64,000 bases of DNA from positions 32,001-96,000 of the IMG/VR virus record IMGVR_UViG_3300035696_000014; one strand, 5' to 3'. A program made the translations under genes and the position numbers. The notes under the pieces are model-generated. The model worked only from the letters and a program-made list of their open reading frames with translations. It made no database searches and was not told the DNA's origin. Shown one piece after another: positions 17,781-32,700 of this stretch. This DNA comes from a virus. Numbering within the stretch: the stretch's first letter is position 1; each line of letters begins with the position of its first letter.

Positions 17781-19223
17781 CTATTCCGCTGCGGGGGCTG
17801 GTTCGGCGGCAGTCGCCAGTTTCTGCTCGGCGATCGCCTGTTCACGCTTCAGCTCCTCCAACTTCAGGCGAATCTGCTTCTTGGACTCCTTCTCGTCGTC
17901 TTCTGACGCCTTGGTGAAGCTCATCACGTTGCCAGAGACCGCGAACTTGCTCCTGGCTGTGTCGATCAACAACGGGTAAACAAGACCGTCTCGGCCGAAA
18001 CGGTTCTTGGCCACGCACAGGCGGCCCTCTCCGGTCGCTTTCTCGTGCGTCCGCCTGCTGAGGCTGAGGACTGCGTCAGCAACGAACGCCTTGCCGTACG
18101 CCTCGCTCATGTTGTTGAGGTCAACGACGTCAGCGCTGGAGCCCTCACGGTTGGACTGCGATGCGGTCCAGCCCGGGATGTGCTTCTCCTGCAAGAACGA
18201 CCGCAGCTCTTCGTAGATCAGCTTCAGCTCGTGCCGCAACGAATCGTACTGGCGGCTGCTGCGCATGATGTCAGCGTAGTCGATGATCAACAGATCAGGA
18301 CGGAAGCCCCTGAGGTCCAGGCGCTCGATGTGAGCTCTGATGGTGTAGATGCTGGCGGTGTTGGCCGGGAACTCCTTGATCATCAGCCGGCCCAGTTCCA
18401 TGTTCTTGTAGGAACCGATGATTTGGTCCTTGCTCTCGATGACGATGTTGCTGTCGATGTCGCAGAGGTTGGAGTCGTACCGTAGGCCCACCGCAGCTTC
18501 TGACAGCTCGAAGGTGTAGTGGAGGACGTTCTTCTTCTGTCTCAGGGCTTGAGCGCCCAACCACACCAGGAAGTGGCTCTTGCCGACGCCCGTGGGGGCG
18601 ATGACAACACCGAGCTCACCGGCGCCGAGGCCGCCATTGAGGACCTCCTTTCGGTCCAACTCATCGATGCCCGTCATCACGCAGTTGCGTTGCAGCCTGG
18701 TGAAGCGTGACTCGTAGTCAGAGAAGAAGTCGTGTCCAAGTGACGGTGTGGTGCCGACACACACTGCCTTCTTGATGCCCTCGACGATCTCTTCGTACTT
18801 GCCATCGTGCATCTTCTCGGCAGCCACCAACAGCTCGGCCTTCAAGGCCTGTTTGCGGCAGAAGTCCAGTGACTTCTCCTTGACGTACTGCAGGTCGCCT
18901 GACTCAGGGTTCGCCCGCATGCGGGTCAGGTACTCGATGATCTGGTCTCGAAGGATGACGTCGGTCCCCTGCTTCAGACCGTCCTTGATGATGGTGACCA
19001 GCAGCTGGAACGACGGGAAGACCTTGTACTGCTTCGAGTAATTGAAGTAGTTCTCGGCCAAGAACTGCAGGTACTTGAGGTCGAAGTACGAGACGTCAAA
19101 CACCTCCATCATCTGCTCAGCCCACTGCCTGTCGGTCAGCAGGGCCTGCATCACCTTCTCTTGGAAGGGTTTGCCGTACTGCGCAAAGTTGGCGTCGGTA
19201 CGGACGGGAGCGTGTTCGGTCAT
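17781..19223 (-). CDS. Replicative helicase (DnaB/T4 gp41-like)
   Basis: APTGVGKS, IDYAD, TASQSNR, KNRFG. Confidence 0.92.
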   Translation of the reverse strand: MTEHAPVRTDANFAQYGKPFQEKVMQALLTDRQWAEQMMEVFDVSYFDLKYLQFLAENYFNYSKQYKVFPSFQLLVTIIKDGLKQGTDVILRDQIIEYLTRMRANPESGDLQYVKEKSLDFCRKQALKAELLVAAEKMHDGKYEEIVEGIKKAVCVGTTPSLGHDFFSDYESRFTRLQRNCVMTGIDELDRKEVLNGGLGAGELGVVIAPTGVGKSHFLVWLGAQALRQKKNVLHYTFELSEAAVGLRYDSNLCDIDSNIVIESKDQIIGSYKNMELGRLMIKEFPANTASIYTIRAHIERLDLRGFRPDLLIIDYADIMRSSRQYDSLRHELKLIYEELRSFLQEKHIPGWTASQSNREGSSADVVDLNNMSEAYGKAFVADAVLSLSRRTHEKATGEGRLCVAKNRFGRDGLVYPLLIDTARSKFAVSGNVMSFTKASEDDEKESKKQIRLKLEELKREQAIAEQKLATAAEPAPAAE

Positions 19224-20197
19224 GTGGATTCTCCGGTCTTCTGTTGCAGGTTCTCGATGCAGTGGAAGGCGTAGAAGAAGTCCTCCACATCAAAGTCACC
19301 GATACCCTCTTTCACTAGTTGCTTCACCAGCCCCATCCTATCCGCCCGGGGGACGAAGTTCTGGATCCGGTGATCGATCTGCTGTTGCTGCTGTGCTGAC
19401 AACATGCTGCCGTCGAGGTAGACCAAACGCCAGTTGCGCTTGACGTCCTCCTCCTGCTCAACGATGCGCTCGTACTTGGGCGACTCGTCGATGTGGGCGT
19501 GAGCGTAGTCAATGACCTGTTGCAACAGCACATCCTCTTCGATGCCCAGGAACGGGAACAGCTTGGCAACCGTCTTGAAACCACAACCCTTGATGCCGGG
19601 AACGTTGTCGCCAGGATCACCGCACAGCGACTTCGCCAACGCAAAGTGTTTTGCCTGGACGCGAAATTCCTCCATGACAGTCTCTTTCGTGACGAAAGTC
19701 TTCTTGTGCAAGCTGTAGACCCGGGTATGGTCATCCAGCAGCTGGTAGAGGTCCTTGTCCGACGAGACGATGATCTTCTCTTCCGCCCGCATCGGTCCGC
19801 GGCATAGGTATGCGACCAGGTCGTCTCCTTCACAGTCAGAGACGTACAACTGGCACATGGGCGCGCACCTTGTCATGTGCAGCAGCGCTTCGATCTGGTG
19901 CTTCTTGTTGTCGTCGGTGTCGGGGATGTCGTCCTCGTAGAAGCGGTTCAGCTTCTCGGGCTTGCGGTTCATCTTGTACTCACTGTAGAGACGGCGACGC
20001 TTGGTCGATCCCCCTCCCTCCCAGCAGATGTAGACTGCCTTAGGCTGTGACTCGAAGACCACCCTTCGTAGCGTCTTCAGGAAACCGATGGTGCCTCCCA
20101 TCTGGTAACCGTGCGCCGACATCGTCGGGTATGCACTGTAGCTACGAACGAAGAGGTTCATCGCGTCGACGATCAGAACCGGACGCGTATTTGACAT
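19220..20197 (-). CDS. 5'-3' exonuclease / flap endonuclease (T4 RNase H-like)
   Basis: IVDAMN, YKMNR, EGDD, SSDKD, GDPGDNVPG. Confidence 0.9.
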   Translation of the reverse strand: MSNTRPVLIVDAMNLFVRSYSAYPTMSAHGYQMGGTIGFLKTLRRVVFESQPKAVYICWEGGGSTKRRRLYSEYKMNRKPEKLNRFYEDDIPDTDDNKKHQIEALLHMTRCAPMCQLYVSDCEGDDLVAYLCRGPMRAEEKIIVSSDKDLYQLLDDHTRVYSLHKKTFVTKETVMEEFRVQAKHFALAKSLCGDPGDNVPGIKGCGFKTVAKLFPFLGIEEDVLLQQVIDYAHAHIDESPKYERIVEQEEDVKRNWRLVYLDGSMLSAQQQQQIDHRIQNFVPRADRMGLVKQLVKEGIGDFDVEDFFYAFHCIENLQQKTGEST

Positions 20198-20204
20198 GTC
20201 CTAC

Positions 20205-20233
20205 ACTGTAACCCCGGACGGGCCGAGAGTTCA
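20205..20233 (-). promoter_or_regulatory. Class-1 promoter TGAAC-N18-TACAGT (leaderless)
   Basis: Motif read directly; TGA is the upstream stop; ATG 7 nt downstream. Confidence 0.7.
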
Positions 20234-20509
20234 GGCGGCAGGTTTGGGTGGATCCTTCGGCAGCAGAGCAGCGATCTCCATCACCAGTTGGGCGATGGGC
20301 TTCGCCAGATCATCTGCATCGAGGGTCACCTTTTCAGCTGGCGTCACGTGGAGCAGGTTGACCTGCAGCTTGCCGTTGTGTAGCGTCAGCGAATGAGAGT
20401 GCCTGGCTATGGGTGGGAAACGGCGGGTCAGGTGTTGCAGCAACGAGTGCGCGCCGCCCAACGATCCCGGGATGACCACCAACCGCTTGTCAGTCTCTGT
20501 CTCGTTCAT
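20231..20509 (-). CDS. Hypothetical protein
   Basis: Coupled ORF (ATGA overlap). Confidence 0.6.
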   Translation of the reverse strand: MNETETDKRLVVIPGSLGGAHSLLQHLTRRFPPIARHSHSLTLHNGKLQVNLLHVTPAEKVTLDADDLAKPIAQLVMEIAALLPKDPPKPAA

Positions 20510-20907
20510 TTCGTCACCAGCTTCACGTTGCCGAAGAAGCTCTCCCAGCAGTCACCGCTGGTGTCAAACTCCACGCACACTCGGATGTCCTCGTCGCCGA
20601 TGATGGTGTCCTTGATGACCTTGAACAGCTCAAAGTCGGCAACCATCTCTTGCGAGTGAGGGCGACGTTCGGACCGGCGCAGCTCAGCGTCTTCCTTCGT
20701 CTCCTTGCAATCACGCCAGGTCGGGCTCGTCGACAACAGCTCGCACAGCTTGGGCGACGCATGGATGTCACAGAAGCGCAGTTTCAGGTTGCGGCTGTAC
20801 GGGTTGCGCTGCTTGACAGCGTCGAACATCTCCTTGCGGCAGGCGACGATGGTGTCGACCAGCGTCTCGACCTTGGGAGAGATCTTCCAGGTGAGCTTGG
20901 AGTCCAT
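20506..20907 (-). CDS. Hypothetical protein, possible degenerate major-capsid A-domain fragment
   Basis: ETLVDTI...ASPKLCELL...FKVIKDT...IRV pattern resembles the adjacent ORF and gp23-like capsids. Confidence 0.4.
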   Translation of the reverse strand: MDSKLTWKISPKVETLVDTIVACRKEMFDAVKQRNPYSRNLKLRFCDIHASPKLCELLSTSPTWRDCKETKEDAELRRSERRPHSQEMVADFELFKVIKDTIIGDEDIRVCVEFDTSGDCWESFFGNVKLVTK

Positions 20908-21329
20908 CAGTCCTCCAGGATGTGCACCCGGCCCTGCTTCATCTGGGTGCGGCCGCCGAGCTTGTATTCGATCTCGACTTGGATCTGGAAGCGGTTCTGG
21001 TCCCTGTCCTCTTCGACGATCATCTGGCAGAGCTCGCCTCGTCCGTTCTCAGTGGGCTTGTAGAGGATCGACGCTTCGAAGAAGCACAGGGTGTCAGCGT
21101 CACACCGGACGAAGACGCGGTCAGCCTTGCAGCCAGCGTCCTTCTCCAGGTGGTTCCGCATGTCGATGACGGTCTCCACCAGGGTCTCGTACCACTCACG
21201 GACGGAGCCAGTGAACTTGGGCCCGATGCTGATGCCCTCGAGGCGGATCTGTTGCCCGCTCTGCTTGTTGACGAAGACACCGGGGTTGCGGTTCCAGAAG
21301 AAGACGCGTTGCAGGTTGGTTCGTTTCAT
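20907..21329 (-). CDS. Stand-alone fragment resembling a gp23-like major capsid protein
   Basis: FFWNRNPGVFVNK.SG, GPKFTGSVREWYETLVETVID, EASILYKP; ATG after GGGGAG. Confidence 0.6.
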   Translation of the reverse strand: MKRTNLQRVFFWNRNPGVFVNKQSGQQIRLEGISIGPKFTGSVREWYETLVETVIDMRNHLEKDAGCKADRVFVRCDADTLCFFEASILYKPTENGRGELCQMIVEEDRDQNRFQIQVEIEYKLGGRTQMKQGRVHILED

Positions 21330-21339
21330 GGTCTCCCCA

Positions 21340-21771
21340 TCATACTCCAGTCGAGCCCCATCCTCCAGCTCCACGCTTCGTCTCCGAAAGCTCGTCGGCC
21401 TCGTCGAACTCCGCCACGGTGACCGGGGCGAAGACGAACTGGCAGATGCGCTGGCCACGGACGATCTGCTGCTCGCAGTCGCTGGTGTTGTGCAGCAGGA
21501 CCTTCATCTCGCCGCGATAATCGCTATCGATGGTGCCTGGCGAATTGAGCAGGGTCACGCCCTGCTGGAGGGCGAGTCCCGACCGCGGCCTGCACTGGCA
21601 CTCGTAGCCCTCGGGTATCTCGAGAAAAAGTCCCGTGCCTACCAGGACCTTACCCCTTGGCGGGATGGTGACGTTTTCGTTGGAGCACACGTCACAGCCG
21701 GCCGATCCCGGCGTCTTGTAGACCGGGACCGGCACGTCTGAGCTTGCCCGCTTGATGCGGACGCGGATCAC
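21340..21771 (-). CDS. dut: Trimeric dUTPase
   Basis: AGCD, PRSGLA, GTIDSDYRGE, RICQ, RGAGGWGSTG. Confidence 0.95.
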   Translation of the reverse strand: MIRVRIKRASSDVPVPVYKTPGSAGCDVCSNENVTIPPRGKVLVGTGLFLEIPEGYECQCRPRSGLALQQGVTLLNSPGTIDSDYRGEMKVLLHNTSDCEQQIVRGQRICQFVFAPVTVAEFDEADELSETKRGAGGWGSTGV

Positions 21772-23012
21772 GCCGCTTCCTCGTCGCCGTCGTCAGCTGG
21801 GCTCTCGCCCTCGCTCACCAGCTCATCCAGGCTGGGCGGCTTCAGGGTGTAGGCAGCATCGATGATGTAGTCGACGAAGGGCTTGTACTGCACGTCCTTC
21901 ATCACCTCGTCGAAAGCGCTCTTGACGAACTTCTTCTCGACCAGCACTTCGCCCGTCTCGGCATCGCTGACAGTCAGGTCCTTCCAGGCCTGGGTGCCGT
22001 TGATGCTGAGCTCGCACTTGCGCTTGCCGTCCTTCGGGTTGATCTCGAACTCGCCGTGCACCTTGTTCTTGGAGCAGTAGTCCCGCACCTCGTCGAAGAT
22101 GTACTCGTGCTCGACGATCCCCTTGCCGAAGATGATGTCGAACTCGTACTTGCGGAACGGCGGCGCCACCTTGTTCTTCTTCACCGTCATGATGACGTGG
22201 ATGCCGATGACGTTGCCGTGCTTGTCCTTGACCTGCGTGCCGCTGGTGAGGCGGATGCGGACCGAGGCGTGGTACGGGATCGCCTTGCCACCCGGCGTCG
22301 TCTGCGGGTCACCGTGGGTGACACCGATGGCGTCACGCAGCTGGTTGATGCAGAGCAACGTCGCGTGGGTCTGGCCGATGACCCCCGTCACCTTCCGCAT
22401 GCCGCGGCTGATGATGCGGGCCTGGAGGCCGACGGTGTTGTCGTCGTACTCACCCTCGAGCTCCGCCTTAGGAGACGAAGCGGCGACCGAGTCCCAGATG
22501 ACGAGGATGGGCTTGTCCTTCGACGAAGCAATCGACTTGGCTTTCAAGACGACGTCTTCGACGATCTTGAAGACCTCCTCGGTGCAGTGAGTGTCGCAGT
22601 AGATGAAGCGCCGACCGATGTCGACCCCCATCGCCGCCAGCTTGTCGACCGGCGTCGCGTTCTCAGTGTCGATGTAGACGACCAGGCCACCCATCTTCTG
22701 GACGATGGCCGCGCACGCGTAGGCGATGTGCGACTTGCCGATCGATGGGGTACCTGCGACTTCGATGATGCGGCCCTCAGGGAACCCGCCACCCGCACAG
22801 TTGCGGATCGCGTAGTCCATCTGGATGCTGCTCGTCGGCAGCCACCGCTTCACAACCGTGGGCGCTTCGTCCTCACCCAGGTTGTACGCCACCCTCATGC
22901 CGAACTCCTTGTTGAGGTCCTTGATGAGGGTAGAGGTGAGCTCATCGAGCTCGTCCCTCTCCCTCTTCTTGGGCTTCACCTCGGAGTCGGCAGCTTTCGC
23001 CGCCTTCGCCAT
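21768..23012 (-). CDS. recA: RecA/UvsX recombinase
   Basis: GFPEGRIIE, GTPSIGKS, YIDTE, WDSVA, INQLR, TPGGKA, KNKVAPPF. Confidence 0.93.
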   Translation of the reverse strand: MAKAAKAADSEVKPKKRERDELDELTSTLIKDLNKEFGMRVAYNLGEDEAPTVVKRWLPTSSIQMDYAIRNCAGGGFPEGRIIEVAGTPSIGKSHIAYACAAIVQKMGGLVVYIDTENATPVDKLAAMGVDIGRRFIYCDTHCTEEVFKIVEDVVLKAKSIASSKDKPILVIWDSVAASSPKAELEGEYDDNTVGLQARIISRGMRKVTGVIGQTHATLLCINQLRDAIGVTHGDPQTTPGGKAIPYHASVRIRLTSGTQVKDKHGNVIGIHVIMTVKKNKVAPPFRKYEFDIIFGKGIVEHEYIFDEVRDYCSKNKVHGEFEINPKDGKRKCELSINGTQAWKDLTVSDAETGEVLVEKKFVKSAFDEVMKDVQYKPFVDYIIDAAYTLKPPSLDELVSEGESPADDGDEEAA

Positions 23013-23020
23013 GTGCTACC

Positions 23021-23920
23021 TCAGTCTTCCTTCGTCAGCTCGGCGAAGGCCGCGTCCAGGTCCGTTGCCTTGCCCGTCGGTGCTTCCGCGTCGAGGTCTG
23101 CGTCGGCCTTCTTGCCGCCGCCACGCCCACCACGCTTCGCTTCCGCCTTGGGAGCCTCTGCCTTCGCGGCGGGCTTCACCTCGGCCTTGACCTCGTTGAC
23201 CAGCTGGTCGAGCTCGTCCTGCGGCTTGTCACCGCGTGAGGAGCCGTCGCTGTTGTCGTCGGCGCCACCGCCGGCGAGCCAGTCGTTCAGGATCTTCTCG
23301 ATCTCCTGAGGCGTCTTCTGCCGGTACATGTCGTCGATGTTCGGCACCGCCTCGAGCCACTTCTTGGCCGTCTCGGGGTCGTCGGACAGCTTGGTCGACT
23401 TCGGACGGAAGCTGACGTCGGTGTCCATGAACTGCTTGCCCTGTGCCTGGGTGATCGTCACCTTCAGGTCGAAGCCCGCCTCCGGGTCCAGGATGTCGCC
23501 GGCGTCCTCGTCGGTGAAGAAGCCGAGCAGCTTCTGGTACACCGTCTTGCCGAACGACCACACCAGGACGCCCTTGTCCTCCTGGCCGCGGACGACGATG
23601 GGCATGTACGCCCTCATCTTCGGCTGGAGCTTCTTCGCCAGCAGGCGGTCTTCCGGCTTGCCGGTGCTGTACAGCTTCCGCAGCAAGTCGTTGATGGGAT
23701 CCGGCTTGCCGAACTGCGACGGCGCCAGGATGCCCGGGTTGTTGCCGATGTAGTAGAAGCGACGCTCGACGAACGGCATGCCGTCCGGGGTCGACTTCCA
23801 GGGGAGTCCCCTGACCTTGTACTCGCCAACCGTGGGCTTCCACAGCTGGACCGATGAGTTCTTGCGCTGACCGCTCAGTTCCTGGACCCGCTTGCGGATC
23901 GCTTCGAGATCGACTGCCAT
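23021..23920 (-). CDS. Single-stranded DNA-binding protein (T4 gp32-like)
   Basis: LWKP, WSFGKTVY, DPEAGFDL, acidic tail DLDAAFAEL; next to RecA. Confidence 0.85.
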   Translation of the reverse strand: MAVDLEAIRKRVQELSGQRKNSSVQLWKPTVGEYKVRGLPWKSTPDGMPFVERRFYYIGNNPGILAPSQFGKPDPINDLLRKLYSTGKPEDRLLAKKLQPKMRAYMPIVVRGQEDKGVLVWSFGKTVYQKLLGFFTDEDAGDILDPEAGFDLKVTITQAQGKQFMDTDVSFRPKSTKLSDDPETAKKWLEAVPNIDDMYRQKTPQEIEKILNDWLAGGGADDNSDGSSRGDKPQDELDQLVNEVKAEVKPAAKAEAPKAEAKRGGRGGGKKADADLDAEAPTGKATDLDAAFAELTKED

Positions 23921-24066: not shown

Positions 24067-24288
24067 TCACTTTCGGGACTTGTTTTTCTTTCGGCCAAGC
24101 CTGTCAGGGTCTGAACCCGCTGGCGCCGTGTATCCCGAGATCCCGCCCACTCCGGCGAACTCATCCATCCCCTCATCCGCTTCCCCGTCACCCTCTTGCC
24201 GACCGTCCGACACAAGCTGATTTGGCACCCTTGCGAGGTGCGCCTCTACCACTTCCCGAATGTACCGCACGAGCAATCGCTTGCCCAT
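24067..24288 (-). CDS. Small protein with LLxxYIREVVE N-terminus (late-type promoter)
   Basis: TATTTA 4 nt before ATG. Confidence 0.65.
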   Translation of the reverse strand: MGKRLLVRYIREVVEAHLARVPNQLVSDGRQEGDGEADEGMDEFAGVGGISGYTAPAGSDPDRLGRKKNKSRK

Positions 24289-29718: not shown

Positions 29719-32700
29719 TCAGGAAGAAGCGGGCGGGATGGGGGTCTGGCTCATGAAGCCGACCGGGTAGACCGGAGCGCGGTTGAAGCCGAGGTGGTCG
29801 ATGCCTGGGCTGATGTCGTGGACCGGTGCGAAGCCGATGGTGACGCGGCACATCTTGGGAGCGGTGCGGTTGAGGTCCGTCTCCCAGGTGACGTTGTCGT
29901 ACCAGTCGAAGTTCATCGACTCGATGAAGCCCGCCAGGCCCTTGCCACCGGTGTCAGCGAACGCCTTGGCGACCGCGTTCGGGTTCTGTGCCGTCGGGTT
30001 GGTGAAGGCGTCCAACGCAGTGACGAACGGAGCGACCGAGTCCTGGTAGACCTGGTTCTGGATCTGCGTCTGGGTCGTCAGGGTCGGTGTCAACGCGGTG
30101 GGCGGGATGACGTAGGTGCCGCCGATGGTCGGGCCCAACGGGTCGTTCGGGTCGTTGAGACGGTTCATGGCGCTGCTGATCAGCGGCACCAGCACGTCCT
30201 GATCGCCCGGTTCAGTGTTGAACTGCACCTGGCCCAGGATGTTGCCGCTGTCGTCGACGCCCGTTGCCTTGATTGTCAGCAGGCTGCCTCCTGCCACGCC
30301 ACCAGCGGAAGCGATGCCCGGGTTGAACTGCGCCGCGTTGGTGGGTGCTCCGCCGCCGCTGCTGACACCAGGGATGGGAGGTGCAGGAACGCTGAGGCCC
30401 AAGCCACCCGCTTGCGGAGGCGCCAGGTTGTACCAGCCGTCGGCAACGTAGTACGTCTCGCCGTTCGGGTGAGCCAGCGCGTTGGCCAGGCCCATGTCGT
30501 AGCTGTTGAGGATGCTCTGGTCGTAGGTGCTCTGGTTGACGAAAGACTGGCCGTCGACCTGGAAGTTTGGGTTACCCGCGCCGAAGAGCCGGGCCAGGTT
30601 GAACTGCGAGTAGTTGCTCTTCAACAGGTCACCCAACCGGATGCGGATCAGCGGGCTGGCGCCGATGAGCTGGCTGAAGGGCTGGGTGAAGACGTACTGG
30701 CCCGTCGCATCGCTGAGCTGCAGGCCCTGGGTGTACTGCGGGTAGACCAGCGTCACCAGCTTGTTGATCTTCAGCCACATCTCGTCGAAGTCGTTCTTGG
30801 ACGTCGCAGCGATCATGAAAGACAGGTTGATGCGACGTTCAGTCGACTTGTAGACGCGGACCGGGTCGACACGGCCGTAGCCGTCGGTCTTTTCGTAGGC
30901 CGCAGTGTAGTCATCGGTCAGCGACGTCAGGAAGGCATGGAAGCCCAGGAGCTCGTTGGTCCGCAGGTCGTGGAAGGAGAAGGGCACGTACTCGGCATCG
31001 AGCAGCGTCTCCATCCTCGACACCTCAGACGACGGCAGGCGGCCGCCCATGTCCGGGGTGGTGACGTACTTCTGCGTCTTGGTCAGGTCACCGTCAGACA
31101 ACGTGGCGTACGGGTTGAACTGGCCCATCCTGACCGCACCGGCCAGGCCCAGGATCGTCGAGGGCAGCAGGTACTCCGTCGGAGCCCGGTTCGATGCCCA
31201 CGCCAGCTTCAGGCTGCCCTGCAGGCGGTTCTTGTTGACGCCGCTGGCGTTGTCGTTGGTGATGGCGTCCATCTGCGACGTACGAGGGGTCGGACCCGTG
31301 TTGTCGACGTAGCTCTTGTTCAGGGTCAGGATCTGGTCGCCCAGCATCGCCCAGATGTTGATGGCAGCGACCACCTTCGACGACCTGATGGTGTCGATCA
31401 TCGACAGGATGGCGTTGATGACGTTCATCGGGTTGCCGCCGATCTTGGACAGCGACTGGCCGATGATGACGAAGCCCCTGATGATGGTCCTCGACACGGT
31501 GACCAGGTAGCCTGGTGAGTCGGTCGACGAGCTCGGGCCCAGGCTGAAGCCGATGCTGAAGCCCCCGCCGGAGGGCTGGGGCAGGCCGTAGAACGCGGCG
31601 AGCCCCGAGTTCATCGCGGTCTGCAACGGGTACACCGTCGGGTTGATGCCCAGCAACGCCCCGAAGTTGAGCGAAGCCAGGGCGCTGATGGCACCCAGGG
31701 GACCGCCGCTGGTCGAAGCGTTGGGCGGCTTGCTGGTCGGGAAGTACTGGCCCAGGGTGTAGCGGCCCTGGCTGTCCTTCATCGCCGTCTTCGTCTGCGG
31801 CGTCACCATGCCCAGCAGGATCGCCAGCAGGCCGATGATGACCTGGACCGCGGCGACCAGTGCCAGCATCAGGGTCAGCATGCCCAGGGCGTCGGTGCCG
31901 TCGAACGGGTCGTTGACGTCGTTGAGCTGGCCCCATGACTGGGTGCCGATGCTGAGGGTCGTCGCAGAACCGGTGACGTCATCGCTGGTCAGGCTCGTCA
32001 GGATGTCCTTGGCCTGCAGAACGTGTTGGTCGATCGTCGCTGCACCCAGCTGTGCGAAGCCGGGCAGCAACGCTGCCGCTTCCAGGCCCGCTGAGTTCGG
32101 GTCAGCGCCCGCTGAGGTGGCGCCCAGGGTCGTCGTTGCCCGGAGGCCCAACAACGGGCCGATGGTGGCCAGGCGGCCGACGGTGTAGGTCTGCGCGTTC
32201 GGGTCCCACTCGCCCAGCTTGCTCTGCACCGACAACGCGGGGTCGTAGTTGGTCCCGGGGTCGCTGACGTCGGTCACCTGAGCGAACGCCGCCGCAGCGC
32301 TGGTGAAGCGGTTGTTGGCCAGCACCGCGCTGGTGTACGGGTTGATGATCTTGGCCGAGGTGTCAGCGTGGCCGGGCAAGGGAGCCTTGGTCGCCGGTGC
32401 ATCGCCCGTCAGGTTGCTCGGGTTGCTGGAGACTGACGTCGAGGTGCCGGTGACGCCCGCGAGCAGGTCGTTGCCGTCGACCCCGCTGCTCGCTGCGATG
32501 CCCTTCTTGATCAGCGACTGGATCGTTGGGTACTGCGCCGACGGGTAGTCGAAGTTCGCCTCAGCGTTGCCAGCGAACGTGGCTGGATTCTGCGGCGGGG
32601 ACTCCAACGGCGAAGGGTTGCCCTTCGAATCGACAAGGGAAGTCACCTTGTCGGTGGTGCCGTCGCCGACCGGGTACCTGTTGGGCAGCGGCGGTGCCTG

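Follow-up and report, generated by a model that had tools for sequence, protein, structure and literature searches.

The DNA analysed here (hereafter, the window) is a 64,000-nucleotide stretch of the IMG/VR virus record IMGVR_UViG_3300035696_000014 (positions 32,001 to 96,000), in which two small adjacent open reading frames (ORFs), ORF A and ORF B, lie among replication genes and encode relatives of one domain of the major capsid protein of gp23 type. The window has a G+C content of 62% and carries nearly all its genes on the minus strand, while its source contig is 127,191 bp long, with an estimated completeness of 34%. Between positions 23920 and 15188, a packed minus-strand gene string was annotated with Pfam. 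It begins, past a 610-nt gap, with a gp32-like single-strand DNA-binding protein (SSB; 23021..23920, gp32, E 8.8e-12), followed by a RecA/UvsX-like recombinase (21768..23012, RecA, E 1e-60), for which blastn matches fall on genes annotated UvsX-like, and a dUTPase (21340..21771, E 2.5e-30) directly upstream of ORF A. Then come ORF A itself (P0001; 20907..21329, 140 amino acids [aa]), ORF B (P0002; 20506..20907, 133 aa) and ORF C (P0003; 20231..20509, 92 aa), the last encoding a protein of no recognised family. Downstream of ORF C lie a 5'-3' exonuclease of the FEN/RNase H type (19220..20197, 5_3_exonuc_N, E 9.9e-29), a DnaB-like replicative helicase (17781..19223, DnaB_C, E 2.2e-15) and a ribonucleotide reductase. 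A preliminary description of this DNA had reported ORFs of 140 and 133 aa with capsid-like peptides behind ssb, recA and dut; the ORFs, the quoted peptides and the three upstream genes are all present, on the minus strand.

The genes of the string are closely joined. Only 10 nt separate the dUTPase stop from the start of ORF A, a GGGGAG box lies 3 nt upstream of its ATG, and homologues share the same start position; further down, the A stop and the B start overlap by one base (TGATG), and B and C overlap by ATGA. A scan of the gene string revealed no terminator-like excess and no promoter-like site was seen in the scanned locus, and the sequence TATAAATA, the T4-type late-promoter box, has 0 occurrences in the whole 64-kb window. 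Because of the tight packing with replication genes and the lack of terminator excess, early or middle expression of A and B is a fair inference: judging from this packing, both proteins would be made together with the replication proteins, ahead of the bulk of the capsid protein. ORF C, which matches nothing in Pfam or PHROGs, has five homologues, shows ratios of nonsynonymous to synonymous substitutions (dN/dS) of 0.19–0.26 and adjoins B in all five related loci that have B.

Our comparisons show that ORFs A and B are intact, selectively maintained single-domain descendants of the A (axial) domain of the T4 gp23-type capsid protein found in this clade of phages (the names A-domain and P-domain follow the HK97-fold literature). 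The phage's own capsid protein (P0166, 640 aa, G000:C1:103509-105431, Pfam Gp23 E 1.2e-66) is encoded outside of the window, and the nearest deposited capsid proteins are at most about 50% identical to it. It carries the same motif as A, and in BLASTP the two share 48% identity over 90 residues (capsid residues 453–541, E 1e-25). At the profile level, hhalign of 36 small homologues against nine capsid proteins gives a probability of 100% (E 1.9e-40) and pairs A residues 8–135 with capsid residues 450–590. Moreover, when run over the phage's own contig, the A-family profile matches A, the capsid protein (E 4e-39) and B (E 0.0096). The capsid resemblance of A is far beyond chance, and the likeness to gp23-type A-domains that had been proposed is thus borne out, directly for A and, for B, by way of the A family and the fold (see below). 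As for size, both ORFs are much shorter than the capsid protein, as had been said, and amount to about a fifth of its length (21–22%). General profile collections do not recognise either protein: Pfam returned 0 families for A and B even at E<=10, short of the Gp23 gathering threshold, and PHROGs no family, apart from two chance-level rows for B. Likewise, sequence profiles searched against PDB chains returned nothing relevant and an ESM Atlas search no usable lead.

The AlphaFold2 model of A is confident (predicted local distance difference test [pLDDT] 91.9). In VIA-align it reaches Z 11.9 with the phage S6 capsid (7x30_A; root-mean-square deviation [rmsd] 2.4, 111 aligned residues) and Z 10.9 with residues 312–520 of T4 gp23 (7vrt), and all 50 rows listed are capsids, encapsulins or cages derived from them. 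The best Foldseek matches are the phage P1 head, T4 gp23, phage S6 and T4 gp24 (E from 4.5e-3). In both A and B, the succession of strand, long helix, strand, short helix and closing sheet superposes on the HK97-fold A-domain, and the models align solely to that part of the capsid chains, not to a complete HK97 fold with N-arm, E-loop, P-domain and A-domain. The similarity to T4 gp23 and to the phage's own capsid protein, for which the preliminary description had called, is therefore present in profiles and structures, while its word "fragments" proved inapt, as each ORF is a complete and compactly folded domain. A complex prediction for the own capsid protein with A scored 0.00 in two runs made without controls and is used as evidence neither way. 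In the BFVD database, two small uncharacterised proteins of cultured giant phages also resemble the A model in Foldseek: A0A2H4IBH4 of Erwinia phage vB_EamM_Y3 (125 aa, E 2.4e-3) and A0A1Y0SV83 of Pseudomonas phage Noxifer (138 aa, E 7.6e-2). They may be independent free A-domain-like proteins or just share a common small fold; in the former case, such proteins may be more general.

ORF B is a much diverged paralogue of A, whose capsid likeness exists at the profile and fold level only. A and B are barely related in BLASTP (E 0.011), and B has no significant pairwise similarity to the own capsid protein (E 0.43). Besides itself, B has 11 homologues of 131–150 aa (59–72% identity), and their profile matches the A family with a probability of 94.7% (E 5.6e-8) and capsid proteins with one of 13%, so that its homology to the Gp23 family is reached only through A. 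The model of B (pLDDT 81.7) has its strands and helices in the same order as A, and VIA-align scores run from Z 9.6 (rmsd 2.7, 107 aligned) down to 5.9, the 50 rows listed being without exception capsid or encapsulin shells. The N-terminal loop motif WxRxPGxFVNK is absent from B, a copy that arose earlier or diverged faster and in which the fold alone is preserved.

An exhaustive HMMER search with A (E<=1e-3) recovered 258 representative clusters, mostly of small proteins, 108 of the 162 matches examined having 111–170 aa. Eight matches are much longer (558–669 aa), and the six that were scanned are all Pfam Gp23 capsid proteins (E 9e-69 to 3e-79), to which A aligns at residues ~370–560. The motif of the family, [YF]W[SN]RxPGxFVNKxTG ... 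FTG[ST]VREWYETLVET, is near letter-for-letter that of the capsid protein, while the remainder of the domain has drifted. Every one of the 16 invariant positions falls in residues 12–52 and matches the capsid motif, and the commonest residue at a position has a mean frequency of 0.67 over residues 8–58 vs. 0.35 over residues 96–140. Many members also keep the C-terminal strand of the capsid protein without the P-domain segment that precedes it there, which indicates that the domain was excised cleanly. The A family is thus large and fast-evolving, with a usual length of about 111–170 aa, and it includes several elaborated forms. One class of about 230–245 aa has an extra N-terminal domain (an extension of ~100 aa), P0101 (432 aa) consists of two A-domain copies fused in tandem, P0046 (246 aa) has a four-cysteine insert and a C-terminal extension, and P0147 (246 aa) begins with what looks by eye like a twin-arginine (Tat) signal. 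A further candidate relative, P0022 (1560 aa, "11 repeats"), was rejected, as it is a GC-rich repeat translated into low-complexity sequence.

In a tree of 135 rows, which omits hits of 171–215 aa and 261–500 aa, motif-less rows, B-family proteins and P0022, all 25 capsid-protein rows stand on one side of a branch supported at 99 by the Shimodaira–Hasegawa-like approximate likelihood-ratio test, apart from the 110 rows of small proteins, and the A of the window is nested within starred clades of the latter. A 37-row subset again separates 12/12 capsid proteins (99) and 20/20 small proteins (93). On this subset, an approximately unbiased (AU) test, for which the clade was specified once the first tree was known, rejects a clade of A and the phage's own capsid protein (p 8e-6, log-likelihood difference 112). 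A therefore comes from an old family distinct from the capsid proteins, and not from a local and recent truncation. Regarding selection, dN/dS values computed by the NG86 method reach 0.42 for A, the highest of the genes compared, but from a single usable pair (the comparison with L003 being saturated), and 0.21–0.29 for B (four pairs), against 0.06–0.11 for the exonuclease and 0.15–0.25 for RecA.

These results bear on whether A and B could be functionless leftovers of a duplicated capsid gene in the course of decay. In favour of this, one may cite the relatively high value of A and one family member that is cut to 68 aa beside an intact gene for a UDP-glucose/GDP-mannose-dehydrogenase-like (UGDH-like) enzyme (L127:642-848), be it a decaying copy or an assembly error. 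However, reading frames are intact across the 258 clusters, dN/dS is below 1 in all five usable comparisons, the fold is confidently predicted as compact, the P-domain segment is cleanly removed, the small proteins form a clade apart from capsid proteins and the starts are coupled within the gene string. Hence, decay is effectively excluded, and the selection and synteny check proposed at the outset yields values below 1 within a tightly packed gene string and no pseudogene-like neutrality.

Seven syntenic loci, including the window, could be compared, and none is without a small A-domain gene, be it A or B, in the interval from dUTPase to exonuclease. The order is dut-A-B-C-exonuclease in L085, as in the window, and dut-B-C-exonuclease, without A, in L083, L084 and L087; L086 has an unrelated 144-aa ORF in the place of A, while L003 has A, but neither B nor C. 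A-type genes are therefore found in the window, L085 and L003, and are missing from the four other loci, of which L086 is part of a complete 369,475-bp genome with terminal repeats (G001), where the A profile matches the capsid gene only. A-type genes are accessory and mobile, moving between variable regions, and the slot of the small genes has the appearance of a mobile-gene hot spot. The space between A and the exonuclease is occupied in L003 by a repeat-rich ORF of 297 aa (L003:7424-8317), and elsewhere a GIY-YIG/NUMOD3 homing-endonuclease gene (L128:420-1277) stands two genes from a small A-domain gene.

The same loci are relevant to a role of A and/or B as modulators of capsid assembly, which would bind the capsid protein at the contacts of A-domains within a capsomer, either like chaperones that keep early-made capsid protein from assembling or as poisons for the capsomers of co-infecting relatives or satellites. 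Such a role would account for the retention by A of the most conserved A-domain motif of the capsid protein, for the C-terminal strand kept by many members and for the occurrence of at least one small gene in 7/7 loci; moreover, T4 has its head-assembly gene 40 between uvsX and a helicase gene, a precedent for a head-assembly helper in a replication cluster. Nevertheless, we deem it unlikely: the A-type gene is dispensable, B has lost the motif, T4 gp40 is similar to neither family and a poison would also affect the capsid protein of the phage that makes it.

Beyond these close relatives, 591 stretches of IMG/VR encode relatives, and the best 80 of the 591 comprise 69 full capsid genes, seven cut by contig ends and four small genes. 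A start-anchored pattern yielded 35 metagenome loci, and small genes are present in 15 of these. The surroundings of 21 small-gene loci were examined, a count that includes near-copies (L094/L103 and L111/L123): 12 have a UGDH-like gene within 900 bp, three follow a dUTPase, three have other neighbours and three are too short. Where the extent of the locus is sufficient, the small gene lies among metabolic or replication genes in 15 of 18 cases. The protein could also be a minor virion component, located on or under the capsomer and made from the replication operon by an accident of gene order. Its domain is capsid-derived, and in one 9.75-kb stretch a 123-aa small copy (L095:9265-9636) accompanies a full 624-aa capsid gene, but the 15 loci just mentioned and the varying presence of the gene between close relatives make this quite improbable.

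The UGDH-like gene is at most 41 bp away in nine of the 12 loci, occurs in both gene orders and encodes a protein of ~320 aa (e.g., L059:6442-7422 and L093:8809-9771) that matches the NAD-binding and central domains of Pfam and not the C-terminal one; its copies are 55–66% identical to that of L059. The clusters concerned also hold methyltransferase, glycosyltransferase-like, nucleoside 2-deoxyribosyltransferase and PTH2-like genes. In addition, a gene for a nicotinamide mononucleotide adenylyltransferase (NMNAT)–Nudix protein lies within 1.3 kb of the small gene in four loci. Nampt is found in L093; L059 and L128 both carry macro domains.

These neighbourhoods might point to an exapted module, in which the domain would have lost its link with the capsid and become a partner or regulatory subunit of the truncated UGDH-like enzyme, or of a neighbouring sugar or DNA-modification pathway. 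Besides the frequency and closeness of the pairing, its two gene orders, the modest identity between the UGDH-like copies and the methyltransferase, glycosyltransferase-like and deoxyribosyltransferase genes around it, such a module would fit the position of the window gene behind a dUTPase, in an operon for nucleotides and replication, and the accretion of domains (the N-terminal extension of 100 aa, cysteine-rich inserts, C-terminal extension), which suits a working family. Yet the contig of the window is devoid of any UGDH-like gene, the complete relative G001 has one without an adjoining small gene, adjacency may be inherited within one broad lineage and a near-perfect retention of the capsid motif is unexpected after a change of function. 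We thus consider this explanation as possible, if rather doubtful.

Among deposited genomes, neither A nor B had any match at E<=1 when 50,697 phage records were searched by tblastn. The four nearest genomes (Microcystis phage Mel-JY01, Flavobacterium phage immuto, LR756508 and LR756511) have weak matches to the A profile, which fall in capsid genes for three of the four, and no small copies were found in any of them. A collection of bacterial genomes gave 11 matches, all in metagenome bins, the nine classifiable ones being capsid genes; consequently, they offer no clue as to the host. Metagenome contigs from three peat runs and one soil run confirm that the stretch exists, and one of them covers positions 20037-21963 without any difference. 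Bins 21398-21554 and 22026-22182 show a very high summed contig depth, most likely due to the genes of other organisms, since the dUTPase and RecA genes are at their most conserved there. A capsid protein distant from the deposited ones, a contig with an estimated completeness of 34% and a syntenic relative that is a complete 369-kb genome identify the source as a giant T4-like phage that is uncultivated, and it occurs chiefly in peat and soil runs. Finally, the gap upstream of the SSB gene contains a 73-aa ORF (24067-24288, minus strand) without a Pfam match, the N-terminus of which, with its leucine/arginine-rich start of the "L-R-x-L-I-R-E" type, resembles by eye that of larger ORFs beside small A-domain genes (L003:6444-7361, L034:6421-7275 and L099:13440-14108).

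The interpretation that we favour, with a probability of roughly 35%, is that A is a mimic of the capsid surface, acting as an accessory counter-defence antagonist toward a host factor. According to this interpretation, A would imitate the exposed A-domain face of the unassembled capsid protein and thereby occupy a factor that recognises this face, most likely a host sensor of the capsid protein or a host protein directed against it. In other lineages, the neighbourhood of A-type and NAD+ salvage genes might then provide a second layer against capsid-triggered, NAD+-consuming immunity. Capsid mimicry is suggested by the motif, which the small proteins preserve as strictly as the capsid protein does, in a domain that otherwise drifts, by the accessory status of a gene that moves between variable regions and by its packing with early-type genes. 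Counter-defence genes are usually accessory and mobile. Moreover, capsid proteins are established triggers of immunity, and genes for rebuilding NAD+ lie near the small gene in other lineages. Capsid proteins trigger Avs7 and the NADase Dsr1 (10.64898/2026.01.04.697583) as well as CmdTAC, for which the binding of the capsid protein is itself the trigger (PMC11618068), while Nampt and Nmnat together (NAD+ reconstitution pathway 2, NARP2) counter NAD+-depleting systems, including DSR1 (10.1101/2024.02.11.579819).

Several points weigh against such mimicry. A sensor that is activated by a ligand should be set off, not blocked, by a mimic of that ligand, so that an antagonist would need additional properties, and the partner of A in this interpretation is hypothetical. 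Most of the conserved residues are W, F, Y, P or G, and fold stability alone may explain their conservation. B shows no mimicry in sequence, yet it is more constant than A in the lineage, and its loss of detectable capsid likeness weakens the case for a mimicry role of that protein. The commonest neighbour of A-type genes (12/21 loci) is that of the UGDH-like enzyme, which is not a known counter-defence gene, and neither it nor NMNAT, Nampt or macro genes are present on the 127-kb contig of the window. In addition, the Tat-like signal of one family member would imply a location outside the cytoplasm, and the loci counted are partly non-independent, owing to the near-copy pairs.

A bolder extension would be that early-made A-domain copies constitute a widespread and undescribed class of counter-defence proteins, which would pre-load and blunt capsid receptors of the Dsr1 or Avs7 type and, in many giant T4-like phages, be coupled to NAD+ rebuilding genes in a two-layer answer to immunity that depletes NAD+ once triggered by the capsid. 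We regard this generalisation as improbable, if worth stating. Recent literature presents capsid proteins as frequent triggers of bacterial immunity, and phages can hardly mutate them away from sensors, because capsid proteins are essential. If capsid mimicry proved true, a separate copy of one capsid domain, made early and free to evolve, would give phages another means of escape and amount to a new principle of counter-defence. Even if it proved wrong, the finding that an individual capsid domain can be put to use on its own would stand. Furthermore, the repeated pairing with a truncated UGDH-like gene is a concrete, testable lead, and the family marks a clade of uncultivated giant phages from peat, soil and aquatic habitats for experimental work.

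With regard to novelty, we found no description of a stand-alone capsid A-domain protein or of a capsid-mimic counter-defence protein in full-text literature searches, judged by titles and the beginnings of abstracts. To that extent, the A family is undescribed: one domain of the HK97 fold persists as a protein in its own right in hundreds of sequence clusters, and neither Pfam nor PHROGs contains the family. The small genes have in common with counter-defence proteins that act by mimicry or sequestration that they are small, accessory, fast-evolving and probably early, but none of the latter is described as a copy of a capsid domain in the titles and abstract beginnings covered. The NMNAT–Nudix genes within 1.3 kb and the Nampt of L093 correspond to the enzyme types of NARP2. 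A small head-related gene in a recombination and replication cluster is also known from T4, where gp40, the head vertex assembly chaperone, is encoded between uvsX and gene 41; as a positional analogue, gp40 was nonetheless rejected, hhalign giving probabilities of 0.04% with the A family and 0.17% with the B family in a comparison of sequences only.

The closest known relative is the Gp23 capsid protein (PF07068) itself. A is homologous to its A-domain segment (~450–590), shares its invariant motif and has the fold of T4 gp23 residues 312–520. In contrast, A and B have no N-arm, E-loop, P-domain or insertion domain, are not scored by the Pfam Gp23 model and are encoded among replication genes, and the A family forms a separate clade. 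Encapsulins are another case of the HK97 fold reused outside of viruses, and their A-domains match our models at Z 7–9, but they keep the whole fold and assemble into shells, while nothing suggests that A or B do so. Lastly, the T4 vertex protein gp24 (1yue), which matches the models at Z 9.0 (A) and 7.1 (B), is the product of a duplicated capsid gene with a specialised role; it is, however, a full-length paralogue of gp23 that takes its place in the shell as a complete HK97-fold subunit, whereas A and B each consist of one domain.

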